IMG/VR virus record: IMGVR_UViG_2718218100_000005
Direction: 5' to 3' (one strand)
Length of the DNA: 23,278 nt
Source of the DNA: a virus
Taxonomy: Duplodnaviria > Heunggongvirae > Uroviricota > Caudoviricetes
Part shown: in pieces, positions 1,069-12,796 of the stretch
How the letters are laid out: every line of letters begins with the position of its first letter
Position numbering within the stretch: the first letter of the stretch is position 1
The notes under the pieces: model-generated
Told to the model about the DNA's origin: nothing
The model's input: only the letters and a program-made list of their open reading frames with translations
Databases searched by the model: none
Translations under genes and position numbers: made by a program

Positions 1069-1540
1069 CGTATTTGTATTTTGTGCAATGGCGGTAGAGT
1101 GGCGATGGTGTGGCGATATGCAGAAACAATGGTAGTGCACGTGCTGTTTAAACTCTAAGGATGAAGCAGAATTCTTCTGCAGCTCCTCCGTATTTCGCAT
1201 AGTGAACCAGGACCTCTGTTAAACAAAAATTTTTCTGGGATTTTTCCACTCGACTTTATTTTTCCTCCTGCAATCCACCAACAGGTACCTGCGCTAATCT
1301 ATCTTTTTAATCTGACAACATCTTGGGAAAAGGCAAATTCGTCAGATTTACTGTTTTTCTGCTGCCTCGAATGCCGATGTCTGAAGCACTGATAAGAGTT
1401 CTATCTCTTTGATATAGATCTTTTTTTTGATGAATTGCACGACATATTATCGTTATGACACCTTCTTGTTAAAGGTATTGTGCTCCTCATCTCGATTTTA
1501 TGATGTGGGCTATGATTGGTTAGTAATTGAGTGTATCGGT

Positions 1541-1822
1541 ATGCGATGTGGTTTATTAATGGCAATCTGCCTTTGTTTAGTATCTTTTAGTGGATATGCA
1601 GCAACAGGAAAGTCTGATGCTCAGATCAAAAAAGAAATAATTAAAGAATCCATTGAATCTTATCCAGGCAATTGTGCGTGTCCTTATAATCATGCAAGGA
1701 ATGGTAGTAGATGTGGTGGACGCAGTGCATATAGCCGTAATGGAGGGTATGACGTGGTATGTTATGAGGGTGATGTTACCGATGAAATGATCCGGCAATG
1801 GAAGCAGGAGAATGCTGAGTAA
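1541..1822 (+). CDS. small secreted Cys-rich hypothetical protein (predicted signal peptide)
   Basis: Sub-ORF of 1427..1822 starting at MRCGLLMAICLCLVSFSGYAA (hydrophobic signal-like N-terminus), mature part with 6 Cys (GNCACPYNH...RCGG...VVCYEG); AT-rich surroundings; start codon choice uncertain (alternatives 1427, 1559). Confidence 0.45.
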   Translation: MRCGLLMAICLCLVSFSGYAATGKSDAQIKKEIIKESIESYPGNCACPYNHARNGSRCGGRSAYSRNGGYDVVCYEGDVTDEMIRQWKQENAE

Positions 1823-1861
1823 TCTCTTTTAACAGGTTTGTTGTGCGAGCATTATGTGCCG

Positions 1862-1945
1862 TTAACGGTTCACATCCCGAAAATCTGCGCTTCTGGCTGA
1901 AAGCCTGTCCGGTGGTCCTTCGTGAGCGATTTCATCAACAATGTA
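1862..1945 (-). pseudogene. continuation of the gpD-like gene on the other side of IS30, ending after 27 codons
   Basis: After removing IS30 plus one copy of the AG duplication the gpD frame continues in phase as YIVDEIAHEGPPDRLSARSADFRDVNR-stop; gpD-like similarity stops near 1862, implying a deletion of the remaining approx 300 codons. Confidence 0.5.
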
Positions 1946-2005
1946 AGTGTAGATTCAATTGGTCAACGCAACAGTTATGTGAAAACATGGGGTTGCGGAG
2001 GTTTG

Positions 2006-3018
2006 GAACTATGGAAGAACGGAACAGGCTTCAGTGAAATAGCGAATATCCTGGGTTCAAAACCCGGAACGATCTTCACTATGTTAAGGGATACTGGCGG
2101 CATAAAACCCCATGAGCGTAAGCGGGCTGTAGCTCACCTGACACTGTCTGAGCGCGAGGAGATACGAGCTGGTTTGTCAGCCAAAATGAGCATTCGTGCG
2201 ATAGCTACTGCGCTGAATCGCAGTCCTTCGACGATCTCACGTGAAGTTCAGCGTAATCGGGGCAGACGCTATTACAAAGCTGTTGATGCTAATAACCGAG
2301 CCAACAGAATGGCGAAAAGGCCAAAACCGTGCTTACTGGATCAAAATTTACCATTGCGAAAGCTTGTTCTGGAAAAGCTGGAGATGAAATGGTCTCCAGA
2401 GCAAATATCAGGATGGTTAAGGCGAACAAAACCACGTCAAAAAACGCTGCGAATATCACCTGAGACAATTTATAAAACGCTGTACTTTCGTAGCCGTGAA
2501 GCGCTACACCACCTGAATATACAGCATCTGCGACGGTCGCATAGCCTTCGCCATGGCAGGCGTCATACCCGCAAAGGCGAAAGAGGTACGATTAACATAG
2601 TGAACGGAACACCAATTCACGAACGTTCCCGAAATATCGATAACAGACGCTCTCTAGGGCATTGGGAGGGCGATTTAGTCTCAGGTACAAAAAACTCTCA
2701 TATAGCCACACTTGTAGACCGAAAATCACGTTATACGATCATCCTCAGACTCAGGGGCAAAGATTCTGTCTCAGTAAATCAGGCTCTTACCGACAAATTC
2801 CTGAGTTTACCGTCAGAACTCAGAAAATCACTGACATGGGACAGAGGAATGGAACTGGCCAGACATCTAGAATTTACTGTCAGCACCGGCGTTAAAGTTT
2901 ACTTCTGCGATCCTCAGAGTCCTTGGCAGCGGGGAACAAATGAGAACACAAATGGGCTAATTCGGCAGTACTTTCCTAAAAAGACATGTCTTGCCCAATA
3001 TACTCAACATGAACTAGA
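2006..3018 (+). pseudogene. IS30 transposase (InsI-like), 5' and 3' disrupted
   Basis: ORF 1922..3058 matches IS30 transposase from ELWKNGTGFSEIANILGS... to ...AQYTQHEL; N-terminus upstream of ELWK is read-through of the terminal repeat (no native start), 3' end runs into the IS629 terminus at 3019. Confidence 0.85.
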
Positions 3019-3060
3019 TGAACCGCCCCGGGTTTCCTGGAGAGTGTTTTATCTGTGAAC

Positions 3061-3951
3061 TCAGGCTGCCAGATCATCGTTTCCGATGGAAGCATAATAA
3101 GCTTTTTCTGCTTCTGCCGGAGGAGTATGGCCCAGCCTTCCCAGCAATCGTCGATTGTTATACCAGTCCACCCACGTTAGTGTGGCCAGTTCCACTTCTG
3201 CACGGTTTTTCCAGCTCTTACGGTGTATTACCTCCGCTTTGTAAAGACCATTGATGCTCTCAGCCATCGCGTTGTCATACGAGTCGCCTGTACTCCCTGT
3301 TGATGCCAGTAATCCGGCTTCTTTTAGTCGCTCCGTATAGGCCAGTGACACATACTGAGAGCCTTTATCGCTGTGATGGATGGTGCCAGACGGACGACGG
3401 GCCCACAACGCCTGCTCCAGCGCATCCAGCACGAATGTCGTTTCCATAGACGATGAGACCCGCCACCCCACGATGTATCCGGCAAACACATCAATGATAA
3501 ACGCCACATAGACGAAGCCCTGCCATGTGCTGACGTAAGTAAAATCAGCCACCCACAGCTGGTCAGGTCGTTCTGCCACGAACTGACGGTTTACGCGGTC
3601 GCCTGCGGCAACGGCTTTCCGGCTGATGGTCGTACGGACCTTTTTACCCCGGAGAACACCGGCAAGTCCCATAACCGCCATGAGACGTGCCACTGTACAT
3701 CTGGCCACCCTGATTCCTTCCCGTAACAACTGACGCCAGACTTTACGCACACCGTACACCTGATGATTTTCATCGTATACGCGCTGTATCTCTCTCTTCA
3801 GCCAGTCGTCGTGCTGCGCACGGGCACTGCGTTTATCCGGATGATGTCGCTGTTGCTGACAATGGTAATACGTTGACGGGGCAATATGCAGTTCGCTGCA
3901 TACCGGTCCGACCCCGTACTGCTCACGCAGCTTATCCAGCAGTGGCATCAT
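3061..3951 (-). CDS. IS3-family transposase OrfB (DDE integrase-like catalytic domain)
   Basis: 296-aa ORF overlapping orfA by ATGA; contains DDE-type motifs ([30 protein letters not shown]); probably expressed as OrfAB fusion by frameshift. Confidence 0.85.
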
Positions 3952-4274
3952 TTTTTCCAGAGGCGGTCGAACTCCGCCTTCGCAAAATAAGCGGAAGCCT
4001 GGCGAAGGATATCGTTACTGCGGCGCAGTTCACGATTTTCACGTTCCAGCTCTTTCAGACGCTGACGTTCAGCGCTGGTGAGCCCACCATCACCGCCCCC
4101 GGTATCCCGCTCATGCTGGCGAACCCAGACACGCAGAGTCTCCGGCGTACAGCCAATCTTTGGGGCAATGGAACAAATTGCCGCCCACTGTGAGTCATAT
4201 TCATCCTGACTTTCCAGAACCATACGAATCGCCCGCTGACGGACTTCGGGGGAAAAACGAGTATTTTTAGTCAT
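3948..4274 (-). CDS. IS3-family transposase OrfA (HTH)
   Basis: 108-aa [54 protein letters not shown]...; leucine-zipper-like C-terminus; typical IS629 OrfA. Confidence 0.85.
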
Positions 4275-4329
4275 CCTGTTTACCTCTTTCTCAGGGAGTT
4301 TAGTCTCCAGGATTTCCGGGGCGGTTCAA

Positions 4330-4428
4330 GATCTGGTTGCTGCTCAGCTAAACAACAGACCGAGAAAGACACTGAAGTTCAAAACACCGAAAGAGATAAT
4401 TGAAAGGGGTGTTGCATTGACAGATTGA
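4330..4428 (+). pseudogene. IS30 transposase 3' segment displaced by the IS629 insertion
   Basis: Translation DLVAAQLNNRPRKTLKFKTPKEIIERGVALTD-stop continues the transposase reading frame broken at 3018. Confidence 0.8.
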
Positions 4429-4435
4429 ATCTACA

Positions 4436-4702
4436 AGTGCCTTTTTCTGTCAGCGGTTCTCCTTTCCAGCCAATGAGAACCGTCAGGCGCGCGCCCCGTG
4501 GCGGTAGCTGCAACTGACCATCTGCATCATCCAGCGTGATGGTGAGCTGGTCCGCCTCAAATCCCCGGTTGTCGGTCAGTGACAGGCTCATCAGGCGCTC
4601 TGCCACGCCTGACAGCGTTTTACCCTCCGCGAGAATATCAAAATCCGGCACTTTCACGTGGTCTGTGCCCTGACTGAGCAATTGCATGGTGGTGTCGGTC
4701 AT
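4436..4702 (-). pseudogene. P2 gpD-like tail protein, N-terminal fragment cut by IS30
   Basis: Minus-strand translation MTDTTMQLLSQGTDHVKVPDFDILAEGKTLSGVAERLMSLSLTDNRGFEADQLTITLDDADGQLQLPPRGARLTVLIGWKG...; resembles the conserved N-terminus of phage late control gene D/gpD tail proteins; SD GGGAGGG upstream; frame enters IS30 at 4435. Confidence 0.65.
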
Positions 4703-4859: not shown

Positions 4860-6044
4860 ATGAGTGAAACTCGTTTTCATGGTGCCCGTGTTACGGAAAG
4901 TACCGACCTGGTAACAGCGATTAATGATGTTGATTCCAGTGTTATCGGTATCGTGGCAACGGCAGATGATGCGGACGCGGAGCTGTTCCCGCTGAACAAG
5001 CCCACACTGCTGACCCGCGTCAATGACGTGCTGGGAAAATGCGGGACTACGGGGACGCTTTATCGTGCGCTTAAGGCTATCGCAGACCAGGTGAGCACAA
5101 AAGTGATCGTCGTTCGCGTGGCTGAACACAAAGAAGAAGGCGGTAAGACGCAGGATCAACTGGTTATCGGTGGTTCTGAATCTGACGGCAGCTATACGGG
5201 GATGTATGCGCTGCTTGTTGCAGAGCAGGATGAAAGCATCGGATACCGTCCGCGTATTCTGGCCGCGCCGGAGCTGGACACGGAGGCGGTAACAAAATCC
5301 CTGTGCGTGATTGCGGGTAAACTGCGCGCGTTTGTGTATGCCACATGTCATGGTTGTAACACGATGGCTGAGGCGATTACCTACCGCCAGAAATTCAACG
5401 AACGTGAGGTGATGCTCTTATGGCCTGACTTCATCGCCTACAACCTGAAAAGTGGCAAAAACGAAACGTTCCCCGCGCCTGCTTATGCGTGCGGCCTTCG
5501 TGCGTACATTGACCATGAGCAGGGCTGGCACAAATCGCTGTCCAACGTTCCGGTTAAAAATGTGCTTGGGATGTCGAGGCATGTGTTCTGGTCGTTGCAG
5601 GCCGAAGACAGTGATGCCAACAGCCTCAACAACAAAGAAATCACGACCATTATTCGTCGCAACGGGTTCCGCTTCTGGGGCAACCGCACACCGGAAACGA
5701 ACGCCTACATCTTTGAGGTGTATACCCGAACCGCACAGGTGCTGGCTGATTCAATTGCGGAAGCGCAGTTTGAAACCATCGACAGTCCACTGACACCTGC
5801 GAACGTGAAGGATGTTATCAGTGCCATCAGGGCAAAACTGGATTCACTGGTTACTGCCGGGAAACTGATTGGCGCGGAGTGCTGGTATGACATCGAGGAT
5901 AACAGCACCACGAATTTACGTCAGGGGCGTGTGCGTATTCGCTACAAATATACGCCCGTTCCTCCGCTGGAAGACATGGAGCTTTACCAGTCGTTTACTG
6001 ATGAATTCTTTGGTCCCGCATTTGCGGTGCTGGGAGGTGCCTGA
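4860..6044 (+). CDS. contractile tail sheath protein (P2 gpFI family)
   Basis: 394-aa ORF; blocks typical of P2 FI sheath (DADAELFPLNKP, QGWHKSLSNV, RRNGFRFWGNRT, YTPVPPLE); RBS AAGGGG 8 nt upstream; stop overlaps next start (ATGA-type coupling at 6042-6046). Confidence 0.9.
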   Translation: MSETRFHGARVTESTDLVTAINDVDSSVIGIVATADDADAELFPLNKPTLLTRVNDVLGKCGTTGTLYRALKAIADQVSTKVIVVRVAEHKEEGGKTQDQLVIGGSESDGSYTGMYALLVAEQDESIGYRPRILAAPELDTEAVTKSLCVIAGKLRAFVYATCHGCNTMAEAITYRQKFNEREVMLLWPDFIAYNLKSGKNETFPAPAYACGLRAYIDHEQGWHKSLSNVPVKNVLGMSRHVFWSLQAEDSDANSLNNKEITTIIRRNGFRFWGNRTPETNAYIFEVYTRTAQVLADSIAEAQFETIDSPLTPANVKDVISAIRAKLDSLVTAGKLIGAECWYDIEDNSTTNLRQGRVRIRYKYTPVPPLEDMELYQSFTDEFFGPAFAVLGGA

Positions 6045-6976: not shown

Positions 6977-7140
6977 TCACGGTTGTGTGCTTTGAGCACA
7001 TAGAAGACTTTGTGGCAGATATTGCCGTTATTTTTAACTGGTCGCCCGCCGAAATCTTCATGATGACGCCCGGCGAAGTGGTTAGCTGGCGTGAGCGGGC
7101 GGCACTTCGCAGCGGGAATGCAGACAATGAAGACTCTTGA
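6928..7140 (+). CDS. E' extension (-1 frame) of the tail chaperone
   Basis: 71 codons open in the -1 frame (ERCGLWREERTGDGSLITVV...RERAALRSGNADNEDS) reachable only by frameshifting at 6922-6928. Confidence 0.65.
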   Translation, partial: ERCGLWREERTGDGSLITVVCFEHIEDFVADIAVIFNWSPAEIFMMTPGEVVSWRERAALRSGNADNEDS

Positions 7141-9930
7141 TATCCGGGTCGCTTTCAGCGCCGTTGACAGGCTGACCCGACCTGCCGAAAACGCACGCCG
7201 CCTGATGGGGCAGTTTGGTGACTCCATCCAGCGAACGCAGGGGGCGATCAAAAATCTCGAGCGTCAGGCGCGATCATTTGAGCGCGCCCGCGACGCTGTC
7301 AGTAAAGCGGATGCTGGCATCGTGAAAGCACGACGCCAGCTTAACGCCCTTAATCAGTTACAACGCACGGGTACAGTGCTCAGCGAAAAACAACAAAAGC
7401 TGATGCAGCAGTTAAGCACCCGGCTTGAACGCCTGAATGAATCGCGCACACGGGAAATTCAGAAAATGAGGGAACTTGGCGGAGAGCTGAAACGCCACGG
7501 CATTTCCCTGACAGGCAGCGATAACACCATTCAGCAGGCCATCAGACGCACCGAACAATACAACAACCAGCTTGAACGCGAACGGCAGGCGCTTGCGCGT
7601 GTAACGCAGGCGCGTGAGCGGTATTCGCACGCGCAGGAAACCGCGGGAAAACTGAAAACAGGTGGTGCGCTGGCAATTGGTGCGGCAGCGGCGGGCGGCT
7701 ATGCTGCCGGGCGTTTTTTGCAGCCTGCGATCGGGTTCGGCAAAGAGATGTCCCGCGTTCAGGCACTGACGCGAATCGACAAAAACAGCCCGCAGTTTAA
7801 GGCGCTGCGTGAGCAGGCGTTAAAACTTGCTGAAACACAGTTTACTGCGAGTGATGCCGCCAGTGGGCAGAGCTTTCTGGCAATGGCTGGTTTTACTCCG
7901 CAGGCCATTCAGGCCGCATTGCCCGGTGTTCTTAATATGGCGCTGGCAGGTGGCGTCGAACTCGGCGAGACGGCTGATATAGGCTCCAATATCCTCACAC
8001 AGTTCAACCTGACAGCCGATCAAATGGACCGGGTGGGCGATACGCTGACAGCAGCATTTACCCGGACCAATACTGATTTACGCGCGCTGGGCGAAACCAT
8101 GAAGTATACCGGTCCGGTTGCCGCAAAACTTGGTATCAGTCTTGAAGAAGCGGCGGCCATGGCCGGGATGCTTGCCAATAATGGTCTTCGCGGAAGCGAT
8201 GCTGGCACGGCCATGCGCGCAAGTCTGTCCCGCCTTGCATCACCGCCAAAAGCTGCGGCTGATGCACTGAAAGAGCTGGGGGTGTCAGTTGCTGACGCCA
8301 GAGGCAAAATGCGCCCGATGGAGGATGTGCTGCTTGATCTCTATAAGGCGACACAAAAATACGGACAGGTGGACCAGGTCTCCTTCTTCAAGGACATCGC
8401 CGGAGAAGAGGCGTTCGTTGGTTTGCAGACGCTTGTTGCGGCGGCTGGTTCAGGAGAGCTGCAAAAACTGACCAGAGAATTGCAGGGGGCAAGGGGAGAG
8501 GCCGATCGCGTCGCAAAAGTAATGGCTGATAATCTTGATGGGGACCTGAAAAATCTCGACAGCGCATGGGAAGGTCTTCGTATTCGCATCAGTGATCTGG
8601 TTGACGGTCCGCTGCGTTCTGTCACGCAGTGGCTCACGCGGGGGCTTGAAAAAATCACCTCGCTGGCGCAGGCCCATCCGGTACTGACGCGCCAGCTACT
8701 GATAGCAGGCGGTGCGTTGCTGGCAATGACTGCAACGATTGGCTCGTTGTCGCTGGTTATTGGGGTGCTTTACGGGAAGCTGGCCACCCTGCGTCTTGGT
8801 TTTGACATTCTTACCCGGTCAATGAATGTCGTCAGGGTGTTACCTGCGCTATGGGGAATGGTGACGGGTTCCGTTTCTTTACTGGGAGGCGTTATCGGGG
8901 CGTTGTTCAGTCCGGTTGGTCTTATCGTGGCTGCGCTTGCCGGAGCTGCCGTTCTTATCTGGAAATACTGGGATCCTATCAGGGCTTTCTTTGCCGGGGT
9001 GTTCAGCGGGATTATGGAAAGGCTGACCCCGTTGCGCGACACCTTTGAACGGTTTGGCCCTGTTTTTGACGTAATCGGAAGCGGTTCAGCCAGGTGTTTA
9101 ACTGGTTTAAATCGCTGCTGTCACCGATGGAGTCCAGCAAGGAAACGCTGGATAAATGTACCAGTGCTGGCGAGGTATTCGGTAACGTTCTTGGTGGTGC
9201 GTTACAGCTTGTTCTGACGCCTGCAAAAATGTTGCTGGATACGCTGGCGTGGATACTTGAAAAACTCGGTGTGCTTCCGGATGAAGCGGAAAGGGCGCGC
9301 AAGAAAATCGAAGACGCACAACGTGCGGCCATTCTTCAGGACAAGGTTGCTCTGTTTCAGGGAGACATTGCGAAAATCAATCCGCCGAAGTCTGCGGGAA
9401 ATAGCAATGGCACCGGAGATGATAAACCCAAAGACAACAAACCTCTCACAGACAGCAATACCGGCACGCTACGCAGACTCAGCAAAATTGCTGATAACAC
9501 AGGTAAGCTGGTTGATGAGACAAAAAAACGCATTGGCCCCGGCGATATTGTCTTTAAGAACCTGCCCCGCGCACTTGCTGTTCGTGGGGAGTGGCAGGAG
9601 CGGAAGATTGCGCAGGTCAGTAAGCCTGCCCCCGCAATTAATATCACACCCGTGGTCCCGGCTCCGCTGCCTCCGGCGCTGGTCCCTGTTGTTGCGGCCA
9701 GCTCCCGCCCGGTGGTGGAGGCCATACGATCGCCAGTGGCATCAGTTCCTGCAACTTCCCGTAACCGGGAGCCTGTTGCCTCCGGATTTGGCGGTGAAAT
9801 TCATGTTCATCTGCATAACGTTGTTACGCAGAATCCCCGCGAACTGGCGAAACTGGTCGGCGAAATGGTCAGGGCAGAAATGGAACGGCGCGCCCGTGCC
9901 AGGCGTGGCAGTTTTTACGATAAAGATTGA
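7127..9930 (+). pseudogene. tail tape measure protein (P2 gpT-like) with a reading-frame break near 9068-9095
   Basis: Long coiled-coil N-terminal region, Gly/Ala-rich hydrophobic central segments and a C-terminal region, all typical of tape measure proteins; ORF 7091..9217 and ORF 9094..9930 are in different frames and together span one gene-sized unit (length not a multiple of 3). Confidence 0.75.
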
Positions 9931-11736: not shown

Positions 11737-11790
11737 TGAACCGCCCCGGGAATCCTGGAGACTAAACTCCCTGAGAAAGAGGTAAACAGG

Positions 11791-12117
11791 ATGACTAAAA
11801 ATACACGTTTTTCCCCCGAGGTCCGTCAACGGGCAGTCCGTATGGTTCTGGAAAGTCAGGGCGAATATGACTCACAATGGGCGGCAATTTGTTCCATTGC
11901 CCCAAAGATTGGCTGTACACCAGAGACTCTGCGTGTGTGGGTTCGTCAGCATGAGCGGGATACCGGGGGCGGTGATGGTGGACTCACCACCGCTGAACGT
12001 CAGCGTCTGAAAGAGCTGGAACGTGAAAATCGTGAACTGCGCCGCAGTAACGATATCCTTCGCCAGGCTTCCGCTTATTTTGCGAAGGCGGAGTTCGACC
12101 GCCTCTGGAAAAAATGA
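11791..12117 (+). CDS. IS3-family transposase OrfA
   Basis: 108-aa ORF nearly identical to copy 1 OrfA (differs at a few residues, e.g. AVRMV/QGEYD/LTTAE). Confidence 0.85.
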
Positions 12118-12796
12118 TGCCACTGCTGGATAAGCTGCGTGAGCAGTACGGGGTCGGACCGGTATGCAGCGAACTGCATATTGCCCCGTCAACGTATTAC
12201 CATTGTCAGCAACAGCGACATCATCCGGATAAACGCAGTGCCCGTGCGCAGCACGACGACTGGCTGAAGAGAGAGATACAGCGCGTATACGATGAAAATC
12301 ATCAGGTGTACGGTGTGCGTAAAGTCTGGCGTCAGTTGTTACGGGAAGGAATCAGGGTGGCCAGATGTACAGTGGCACGTCTCATGGCGGTTATGGGACT
12401 TGCCGGTGTTCTCCGGGGTAAAAAGGTCCGTACGACCATCAGCCGGAAAGCCGTTGCCGCAGGCGACCGCGTAAACCGTCAGTTCGTGGCAGAACGACCT
12501 GACCAGCTGTGGGTGGCTGATTTTACTTACGTCAGCACATGGCAGGGCTTCGTCTATGTGGCGTTTATCATTGATGTGTTTGCCGGATACATCGTGGGGT
12601 GGCGGGTCTCATCGTCTATGGAAACGACATTCGTGCTGGATGCACTGGAGCAGGCGTTGTGGGCCCGTCGGCCGTCCGGCACAGTCCATCACAGTGATAA
12701 AGGTTCTCAGTATGTATCACTGGCCTATACGGAGCGACTAAAAGAAGCAAAACTGCTGGCATCAACAGGGAGTACAGGTGACTCGTATGACAATGT
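12114..12796 (+). pseudogene. IS3-family transposase OrfB, 3'-truncated
   Basis: Matches copy 1 OrfB up to ...[11 protein letters not shown] then ends in unrelated sequence (ORF 12114..12806, 230 aa versus 296 aa). Confidence 0.8.

Follow-up and report, generated by a model that had tools for sequence, protein, structure and literature searches.

The window, by which we mean the whole stretch of 23,278 nucleotides analyzed here, is a segment of the Escherichia coli O157:H7 chromosome with the gene order pgsA, tRNA genes for Gly, Cys and Leu, and a P2-like prophage remnant. This remnant lies beside leuZ and is named Sp13 in the annotation of strain Sakai. Within it, an IS629 element is located in a crippled copy of IS30, which in turn is located in tail gene D of the decayed prophage. 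The genes for the sheath, the tube, E and the tape measure adjoin the D remnant, and D is divergent from the tail sheath gene at 4860. A first-pass annotation, made from the letters alone, had proposed a nested insertion of this kind at 1948-4435, and comparisons with reference elements and with empty target sites bear it out at exactly these coordinates. The nesting itself is correct and ordinary, and it has been annotated before in O157:H7 genomes. The features of the locus are as follows.

1866-1873, no strand: junction of a deletion of approximately 3.3 kb; the position is approximate (near 1869-1873), with a CA duplication and 1-2 nt of microhomology
1874-1947, minus strand: remnant of tail gene D to the left of IS30, codons 90 to about 113, assigned by identity to D of FHI_NMBU_03; AG copy at 1946-1947; in-frame loss of 6 nt near 1902
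1948-3018, plus strand: left part of IS30, assigned by alignment to K-12 IS30A; left inverted repeat at 1948-1973, transposase codons 15 to about 351
3016-3018, no strand: left AGA target duplication from IS629; IS30A has a single AGA
3019-4328, minus strand: complete IS629 (IS3 family), 1310 bp, 100% identical to depositor-annotated IS629
3019-3043 and 4304-4328: inverted repeats of IS629, 25-nt arms that are 88% complementary and start with TGAACCGCCCCGGG
3061-3951, minus strand: IS629 orfB, 296 aa; Pfam HTH_21 and rve
3877-3993: ALIL frameshift pseudoknot in IS629 (Rfam RF01497, 121.5 bits)
3948-4274, minus strand: IS629 orfA, 108 aa; Pfam HTH_Tnp_1
4329-4435, plus strand: right part of IS30, assigned by alignment to IS30A; right AGA at 4329-4331, last 32 transposase codons, right inverted repeat at 4410-4435
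4436-4702, minus strand: N-terminal 89 codons of tail gene D, assigned by identity to full-length D; AG copy at 4436-4437

Anatomy of the nested elements

The two D fragments (1874-1947 and 4438-4702), when joined, are in frame, and 113 of 115 residues agree with the first 115 of the D protein (369 aa) that strain FHI_NMBU_03 encodes. The latter protein matches the Pfam family Phage_GPD (5e-17). A Pfam search with the joined 116-aa fragment alone gave no match, and the fragment is assigned to Phage_GPD through this matching homologue, with whose N-terminus it shares 98% identity. The N-terminal part has been annotated as 'phage late control D family protein, missing C-terminus'. Indeed, D is incomplete: codons 1 to about 113 are left, and the remainder was lost in a 3.3-kb deletion that cuts the gene approximately 75 bp to the left of IS30, homology to intact D beginning at position 1873. 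This deletion took hok, ogr, a yecA-like gene and approximately the C-terminal two thirds of D. In strains LSU61 and PV15-279, hok, ogr and the yecA-like gene are present between the same left flank and D. The first-pass annotation had missed this separate truncation. Its statement that the D reading frame continues in phase across IS30 is correct for the joined fragments, but to the left of IS30 the frame runs for only about 24 codons before it meets the deletion junction.

Without the second AGA, the two parts of IS30 (1948-3018 plus 4332-4435, 1175 bp) align end to end with the 1221-bp IS30A of K-12, with four substitutions, one of which changes Val to Leu, and one lesion at the 5' end. The identity amounts to 99.7% across 1174 aligned bases. 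The terminal 26-bp imperfect inverted repeats are those of IS30A, with no mismatch at the outermost bases of either end. This alignment confirms both the termini and the internal deletion, and the 5' region is not intact. At 2004-2006 a single G (2005) replaces nt 58-104 of IS30A (47 nt), so that the net loss is 46 bp rather than the approximately 40 bp estimated at first; the accompanying claim that the start codon is lost was right. The lesion takes out the ATG (IS30A nt 63) and codons 1-14, while the GGAGG Shine-Dalgarno sequence is kept. On both sides of the element an AG is found (1946-1947 and 4436-4437), and the uninterrupted D gene of FHI_NMBU_03 reads CAACAATGTAAGTGCCTTTTT, with a single AG, which equals the two window flanks joined. 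The proposed 2-bp duplication at codon 89/90 of D is thereby substantiated, and 2 bp is the length known for IS30 target duplications (PMC9333248). On the opposite strand, the right half of this D site is GAAAAAGGCAct, which is similar to AAAAAAGGCTac, the left half of the site that IS30A occupies in K-12; the D site may be one of the nearly palindromic hot-spot sequences into which IS30 inserts.

The reconstituted IS30 open reading frame matches HTH_38 (7.5e-23) and rve (4.1e-14), but in the window the transposase is neither complete nor translatable, since the start codon and codons 1-14 are gone and the frame is split by IS629. The copy is thus a family member by descent, yet defective, and 'doubly inactivated', as it had been called, is an apt description of the window copy. 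An in-frame GTG at 1979 survives the deletion; it has no evident ribosome-binding site, and a product started there would lack the first 14 residues. In relatives without IS629, the NCBI pipeline nonetheless calls an intact transposase of 377-378 aa from this GTG. Judged from its sequence, this GTG-initiated form is probably inactive as well. 

The element at 3019-4328 had been labelled 'IS629-like'. It is IS629 itself, being 100% identical over its full length to the 'insertion sequence:IS629' of phage CP-1639 and to the 'IS629 transposase' element of VT2phi_272. The same element goes by the name IS1203 in NCBI and in the Sakai repeat annotation, where 'IS1203 Family: IS3' and 'IS629 transposase OrfB' occur side by side. 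Its overlapping orfA and orfB are predicted to be joined by programmed -1 frameshifting, and the NCBI pipeline calls an intact programmed-frameshift transposase in strain 17B6-2, the sequence of which equals that of the window over 1700-4700. IS629 is complete and is the only member of the nest that looks active. It is oriented opposite to the IS30 transposase gene, in the 3' part of which it resides. AGA is present at 3016-3018 and 4329-4331, where IS30A reads CATGAACTAGATCTGG with a single AGA, so the 3-bp duplication holds; duplications of 3-4 bp are known for IS629 (PMC3271280). The interruption was placed between HEL and DLVAAQ, which is essentially right, the break lying inside the Asp codon next after His-Glu-Leu. 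As flanks of 2 and 3 bp can match by chance (1 in 16 and 1 in 64, respectively), it is the empty-site comparisons, and not the repeats, that settle both insertions.

O157 genomes carry approximately 20 copies of IS629. Such repeats are a classic source of misassembly, and a chimera of mis-joined IS copies would therefore have to be considered. We regard this as having practically no chance of being true, because the same junctions are found in nine independently sequenced complete genomes, the duplications agree at both junctions, and the rejoined flanks fit IS30A perfectly.

Order of events and natural intermediates

The first-pass annotation had ordered the events as prophage acquisition, IS30 insertion into D and IS629 insertion into IS30. 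This order is supported by the anatomy, and most of its steps can be seen as natural intermediates. The O157:H7 strain LSU61 has the same prophage at the leuZ-side locus, with a D gene that lacks IS30. PV15-279, also O157:H7, has IS30 at the same position in D with the 5' end intact, and EDL933 has IS30 with the 46-bp deletion and without IS629. We determined frequencies with junction-specific 40-mers in 5,426 complete E. coli genomes. The D/IS30 junction was found in 268 genomes, the junction of the 46-bp deletion in 254, and the window IS629 junction (2999-3038) in nine, always at one copy per genome and, for the last, always at the prophage locus. These counts agree with the proposed order. 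The junction of the 3.3-kb deletion was counted separately and was likewise found in 254 genomes, again once in each. The deleted IS30 occurs at no second locus in the 5,426 genomes, as expected of an immobile copy.

The boundaries, duplications, empty sites, intermediates and population frequencies were observed directly, and the locus is best explained as a decaying P2-like prophage that mobile elements struck one after another, each event being independent. First, an intact IS30 of 1221 bp would have entered D at codon 89/90 with its usual 2-bp AG duplication. In the lineage leading to typical O157:H7, nt 58-104 of IS30 would then have been lost and the separate deletion of about 3.3 kb would have occurred, in either order. 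Much later, and in a small sub-lineage, an intact IS629 would have jumped into the IS30 transposase gene, in its 3' part and facing the other way, duplicating AGA. Both elements presumably moved by copy-out-paste-in transposition. 

In a different scenario, an IS30::IS629 composite formed elsewhere would have entered D as one unit, mobilized by an IS30 transposase acting in trans. In non-O157 E. coli, nests of IS30 with IS629/IS1203-type elements are widespread on plasmids and elsewhere on chromosomes, and for IS629 at nt 744 of IS30 the same junction recurs both on plasmids and in the prophage. However, EDL933 and many other genomes carry this very IS30 at its D site, 46-bp lesion included, but free of IS629, and strains such as BB24-1, 1613 and 7784 retain a pristine target with an ORF of 1137 nt. 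Moreover, IS629 occupies 13 other positions of this same IS30 in other strains, and the window junction is confined to the nine genomes mentioned above, at the prophage locus. We therefore consider entry as a composite highly improbable, and we hold with great confidence that the locus is a fossil stack of successive events, to which we ascribe no function and in which IS30 is immobile by itself and D is dead. It provides a clean worked case in which the order of events can be read from nested insertion sequences and most steps are confirmed by natural intermediates.

In strain 2014C-3011, an IS30 with an intact 5' end is found at the identical position in D, in a related prophage at another chromosomal locus, on the flk side. 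D may offer a preferred site that IS30 entered on several occasions; alternatively, recombination may have spread the segment.

IS629 insertions and a 3-bp loss in the IS30 copy

Across different O157:H7 strains, IS629 is present at at least 14 different positions within the IS30 copy of about 1.2 kb, seven of them in the last 130 bp or so. The duplications read CTG, GTT, CCG, CAC, AAC, CAC, AGA, AGA, GGT and CAAC. A search for a target consensus among these IS30 sites revealed no pattern in the flanks. Strain CEC96047 carries another IS629 variant only 10 nt from the window site.

The first 14 IS629 alleles sampled (11 in IS30 and three beside it) all had the same orientation, but they were drawn from a list that joined only pieces on the same strand. 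A control query with IS629 flipped found nine O157 genomes with the opposite orientation; the five of these that were examined represent three positions in IS30 and two beside it. The apparent orientation bias is thus a sampling artefact, and the tally of 14 versus five is not significant by our own binomial estimate on unevenly sampled genomes. A link of orientation with replication likewise found no support, as six Sakai copies, which we assigned to replichores by what we take to be their K-12 map positions, are of mixed orientation on both replichores. The coordinates in Table S2 of Rump et al. 2011 proved unsuitable as orientation data, two Sp13 entries that are opposite in sequence both being listed in ascending order. 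Finally, 163 genomes that cover at least 80% of 1700-4700 could not all be counted as the prophage locus. About 50 are, and the others have IS30 plus IS629-type nests elsewhere, on chromosomes or plasmids, that cover only 249-2747 of the query.

EDL933 reads CATGAAGATCTGG where IS30A has CATGAACTAGATCTGG, a loss of 3 nt that directly abuts the AGA duplicated around the window IS629. The 40-mer for this loss occurs once in each of 80 genomes, among them Sakai, EDL933 and 86-24. For Sakai Sp13, the published listing gives a truncated IS629 only (Rump et al. 2011, Table S2). In Sakai, EDL933 and the 78 other genomes, one candidate origin of the loss is excision, which would make it a scar of the type ascribed to the IS-excision enhancer IEE. 

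The position and the spread of this putative scar would fit a history in which the IS629 at the window site is old: the ancestor of a large O157:H7 clade would have carried it, imprecise excision would have removed it later, and the nine genomes would retain the ancestral state. Yet the scar may be the product of another round of insertion and excision at a hot site, as the CEC96047 variant nearby illustrates, or it may be unrelated. By a rough estimate, a 3-nt deletion placed at random would abut one of the 14 known IS629 sites in a few percent of cases, which is not negligible. In addition, at least one genome with the EC4115-type IS629 variant, CDC#03-98, contains the scar 40-mer, and its span is 2998 nt, as the scar would predict; this hints at homoplasy or recombination. 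We consider an old IS629 a possible but not the favored reading, and retain a late insertion in a small sub-lineage. 

Similarly tentative is the idea that the dead IS30 copy acts as a landing pad with repeated entry and exit of IS629; the 46-bp and 3.3-kb deletions might then be IS629 excision scars of the same kind. If true, the locus would document cycles of insertion and excision in compact, natural form, and would be a candidate for a regional hot spot of IS629, the target preference of which is said to be unknown. The many independent IS629 insertions in one IS30 and the possible excision scar in reference strains may be of interest to IS biologists. The practical value is limited: the rare junction 2999-3038 (9 of 5,426 genomes) could serve as a lineage marker that fits the existing typing of O157 by IS629 sites, and annotations disagree, the deleted IS30 being 'partial' in Sakai but called as an intact transposase in some of the RefSeq genomes.

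Comparison with known elements and loci

The window IS30 has in common with IS30A (insI1) of K-12 the 26-bp ends, the 2-bp duplication and a transposase with HTH_38 and rve domains. Unlike IS30A, it has G in place of nt 58-104, has lost its start codon, differs by four substitutions and has its gene split by IS629. The window IS629 corresponds to the element of EHEC O157:H7 in its length of 1310 bp, its orfA and orfB, its ALIL -1 signal and its 3-bp duplication. No difference was found within the element, and the insertion site alone is unusual (9/5,426). A published counterpart is IS.33 of EC4115 and TW14359 (Rump et al. 2011), an IS629 in the same IS30 copy of the same prophage and in the same orientation, which the authors entered under 'Sp 13' without mention of IS30. 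The site is different, since IS.33 lies at nt 246 of IS30 with a CTG/CAG duplication, is a sequence variant of IS629 and was found in 20 genomes. Sakai Sp13 represents the same locus with the same gene content, and is annotated at this spot as 'prophage Sp13, P2-like phage', 'IS30 partial' and 'insI1'; Sakai and EDL933 differ from the window by the 3-bp loss at the window IS629 site, and the EDL933 IS30 lacks IS629. A comparable nest is IS911A::IS30A in the cryptic prophage CP4-6 of K-12, where both halves of the interrupted element are likewise annotated in a defective prophage. There, IS30 invades an IS3-family element, whereas in the window the roles are reversed.

Setting of the locus and state of gene D

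The window corresponds to O157:H7 chromosomes of E. coli and aligns over its full length, at 99.9% identity, with strain 17B6-2 (NZ_CP038414.1, 2155375-2178652). Its left part carries pgsA and tRNA genes followed by a P2-like prophage remnant, annotated in Sakai as 'prophage Sp13, P2-like phage'. The nested insertion sequences occupy the left end of the remnant, where the minus-strand D fragment is divergent from the plus-strand sheath, tube, E and tape-measure genes. The tape-measure gene (7127-9930) is annotated as frameshifted both in the near-identical 17B6-2 and in EDL933, which represents further decay in the prophage tail module.

Features of the locus
Left end of window: pgsA, then tRNA genes for Gly, Cys and Leu
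1866-1873 (approximately 1869-1873): junction of a deletion of about 3.3 kb, with a CA duplication, about 75 bp left of IS30
3019-4328, minus strand: IS629, 1310 bp, with 25-nt imperfect terminal repeats
Within IS629, minus strand: orfA, 108 aa, HTH_Tnp_1
Within IS629, minus strand: orfB, 296 aa, HTH_21 and rve

The first-pass annotation had proposed that IS30 is flanked by a 2-bp AG duplication and that the D frame continues in phase over the insertion. AG is indeed present on both flanks (1946-1947 and 4436-4437), and when the two flanks were joined with one AG and searched in all complete E. coli genomes, an uninterrupted match over the junction was obtained in many of them. Since the empty site of strain FHI_NMBU_03 (...TTCATCAACAATGTAAGTGCCTTTTTCTG...), with its single AG, is identical to the joined window flanks, the duplication is real and not a chance match. 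D of this strain is a 369-aa ORF that matches Pfam Phage_GPD; the joined window fragments are identical to it at 113 of its first 115 residues, and the reading frame is preserved over the IS30 site (codon 89/90). What had escaped notice is that D homology ends at about position 1873. In the O157:H7 strains LSU61 and PV15-279, the left-flank gene that they share with the window (WP_001303543.1) is separated from D by hok, ogr and a yecA-like gene, and the rest of D is present too, from which it follows that the window underwent the deletion of about 3.3 kb, which removed these three genes and the C-terminal two-thirds or so of D (compare extracts L007, 174-3530, and L017, from PV15-279, 1100-4480). 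The D remnant also has a 6-nt in-frame deletion at about position 1902, with loss of Thr-Val, relative to FHI_NMBU_03 and LSU61.

The IS30 and IS629 copies

As reference for IS30 we used the annotated 1221-bp mobile element of K-12 MG1655 (IS30A). Positions 1948-3018 plus 4332-4435 align with it from the first to the last base (1175 bp), with four substitutions and one 5' lesion, in which IS30A nt 58-104 (47 nt, TTTGAATGAGACG...CTCTGTTTTT) are replaced by a single G at position 2005. The net loss is thus 46 bp, close to the roughly 40 bp including the start codon that had been noticed earlier; the ATG (IS30A nt 63) is lost together with codons 1-14, the GGAGG Shine-Dalgarno sequence is kept, and the reconstituted ORF contains the HTH_38 and rve domains (Pfam). 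By accident, the deletion brings an upstream GTG (1979) in frame, and in IS629-free relatives the NCBI pipeline calls an 'intact' transposase of 377 or 378 aa starting at this GTG, whereas the Sakai annotation of the same copy reads 'IS30 partial'. No ribosome-binding site was seen upstream of the GTG, and we infer that the GTG-initiated ORF is inactive. As by-products of insertion and 46-bp deletion, two ORFs (1843-2037 and 1922-3058) extend from the D remnant, on its antisense strand, across the left end of IS30; one of them is RefSeq hypothetical protein WP_115801851.1.

The inner element, previously described as 'IS629-like', is IS629 itself: from end to end it matches the depositor-named IS629 of phages CP-1639 and VT2phi_272 with 100% identity. 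The NCBI pipeline and the Sakai repeat annotation use the name IS1203 for the same element, beside 'IS629 transposase OrfB'. It also contains the ALIL frameshift pseudoknot (121.5 bits). The predicted 3-bp AGA duplication is present at 3016-3018 and 4329-4331, with a single AGA in IS30A within CATGAACTAGATCTGG, and the transposase, reported as split after His-Glu-Leu, is broken inside the following Asp codon.

A second, truncated IS629 (11737-12793, plus strand; nt 1-1057) shares 97.2% identity with the full copy and is the one that Rump et al. list as 'IS.14, Sp 13'. Relative to 17B6-2 it has 21 differences clustered at 12116-12605, the rest of the 23 kb differing by one SNP and one indel, a pattern that suggests gene conversion between IS629 variants.

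Order of events in the genome population

Each junction was counted in 5,426 complete E. coli genomes with a centred 40-nt query that reports the exact junction only, and each was present once per genome.

Genomes with each junction, among 5,426
D / IS30 left end: 268
46-bp lesion: 254
3.3-kb deletion: 254
IS30 / IS629 of the window: 9

Intermediates exist as well: LSU61 has D without IS30; in PV15-279, IS30 is present in D, its 5' end is intact and the 3.3-kb deletion is absent; and EDL933 has the lesioned IS30 without IS629. Sakai shares the scar 40-mer of EDL933 described below, and a truncated IS629 is the only one that Rump et al. list for its Sp13. Counts and intermediates together support the order proposed at first, from prophage to IS30 in D to IS629 in IS30, and add the 46-bp and 3.3-kb deletions, in either order, as further steps. 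The lesion 40-mer revealed no deleted IS30 at a second locus among the 5,426 genomes, as expected for an immobile copy.

A full-length IS30 occupies the identical D position in a related P2-like prophage of 2014C-3011, next to flk at another chromosomal site (extract L016, 4521-7054), and holds an IS629-type element at IS30 nt 1074. IS30 prefers hot-spot sequences (PMC9333248), so that repeated insertion at the D site is possible; recombination or exchange between prophages is another possible origin. The right half of the D target, read on the other strand (GAAAAAGGCAct, 4438-4455), is similar to AAAAAAGGCTac (extract L002, 2520-2541), which forms the left half of the target of K-12 IS30A in IS911, and the two may represent a shared half-site of this preference.

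Recurrent IS629 insertions and a possible excision scar

In other O157 genomes IS629 was located by its terminal repeats and annotated transposase gene. At least 14 distinct positions, in both orientations, were found in this one IS30 copy across strains, seven of them in the last 130 bp or so.

Approximate IS629 positions (IS30 nt)
Opposite to the IS30 gene: 246, 384, 429, 609, 744, 811, 1074, 1108, 1118 (window), 1152, 1197
Same direction as the IS30 gene: 975, 1071, 1176

Another five sites, spread over the D fragments, the spacer between D and sheath and the sheath gene itself, fall within a distance of about 1.5 kb. The nt-246 allele (20 genomes) corresponds to 'IS.33, Sp 13' in Rump et al. 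2011, who described no sequence hot spot for IS629 but noted 'IS islands'. We found no consensus among the IS629 duplications and flanks in IS30. The nt-744 junction (extract L009, 926-965) is shared by Sp13 copies that have the 46-bp lesion and copies that lack it (PV15-279, PA2, F3113), and it recurs on the plasmids of unrelated E. coli, E110019 being one example. An apparent orientation bias, the first 14 alleles all running one way, was an artefact of drawing genomes from a hit list that joins same-strand pieces only. A control query with IS629 flipped returned nine O157 genomes with the opposite orientation, and six of the IS629 copies in Sakai are of mixed orientation on both replichores; hence, no bias is claimed. 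In PV15-279, IS629 in IS30 directly adjoins the middle of the tape-measure gene (L017, 5264-6580), an IS629-adjacent deletion having removed the IS30 3' part and the D, sheath, tube and E genes.

At the site of the window's IS629, EDL933 reads CATGAAGATCTGG (extract L004, 5025-5035; window 3010-3018 / 4329-4335), having lost 3 nt (CTA or ACT) that abut the AGA duplicated in the window. The scar 40-mer is a single-copy, exclusively chromosomal match in 80 O157 genomes, among them Sakai, EDL933 and 86-24. Because IEE-dependent excision of IS629 is reported to leave adjacent deletions of a few nt upward (PMC9943667), this loss may be the imprecise-excision scar of a lost IS629, although another IS629 lies 10 nt off in CEC96047 and, with 14 known sites, the probability that such a loss abuts one of them by chance is not negligible. 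A like origin could apply to the 46-bp and 3.3-kb deletions.

Overall, the initial observation is right, and so is its interpretation, once three points are corrected: the loss in IS30 amounts to 46 bp, a deletion has also truncated D, and the inner element is IS629 proper. IS30 copies with IS629/IS1203-type elements are common at other places, for instance on the large plasmids that poultry isolates carry. The nest belongs to a familiar class of IS stacks in defective prophages and, since public O157:H7 genomes contain it in annotated form, is ordinary and already known.
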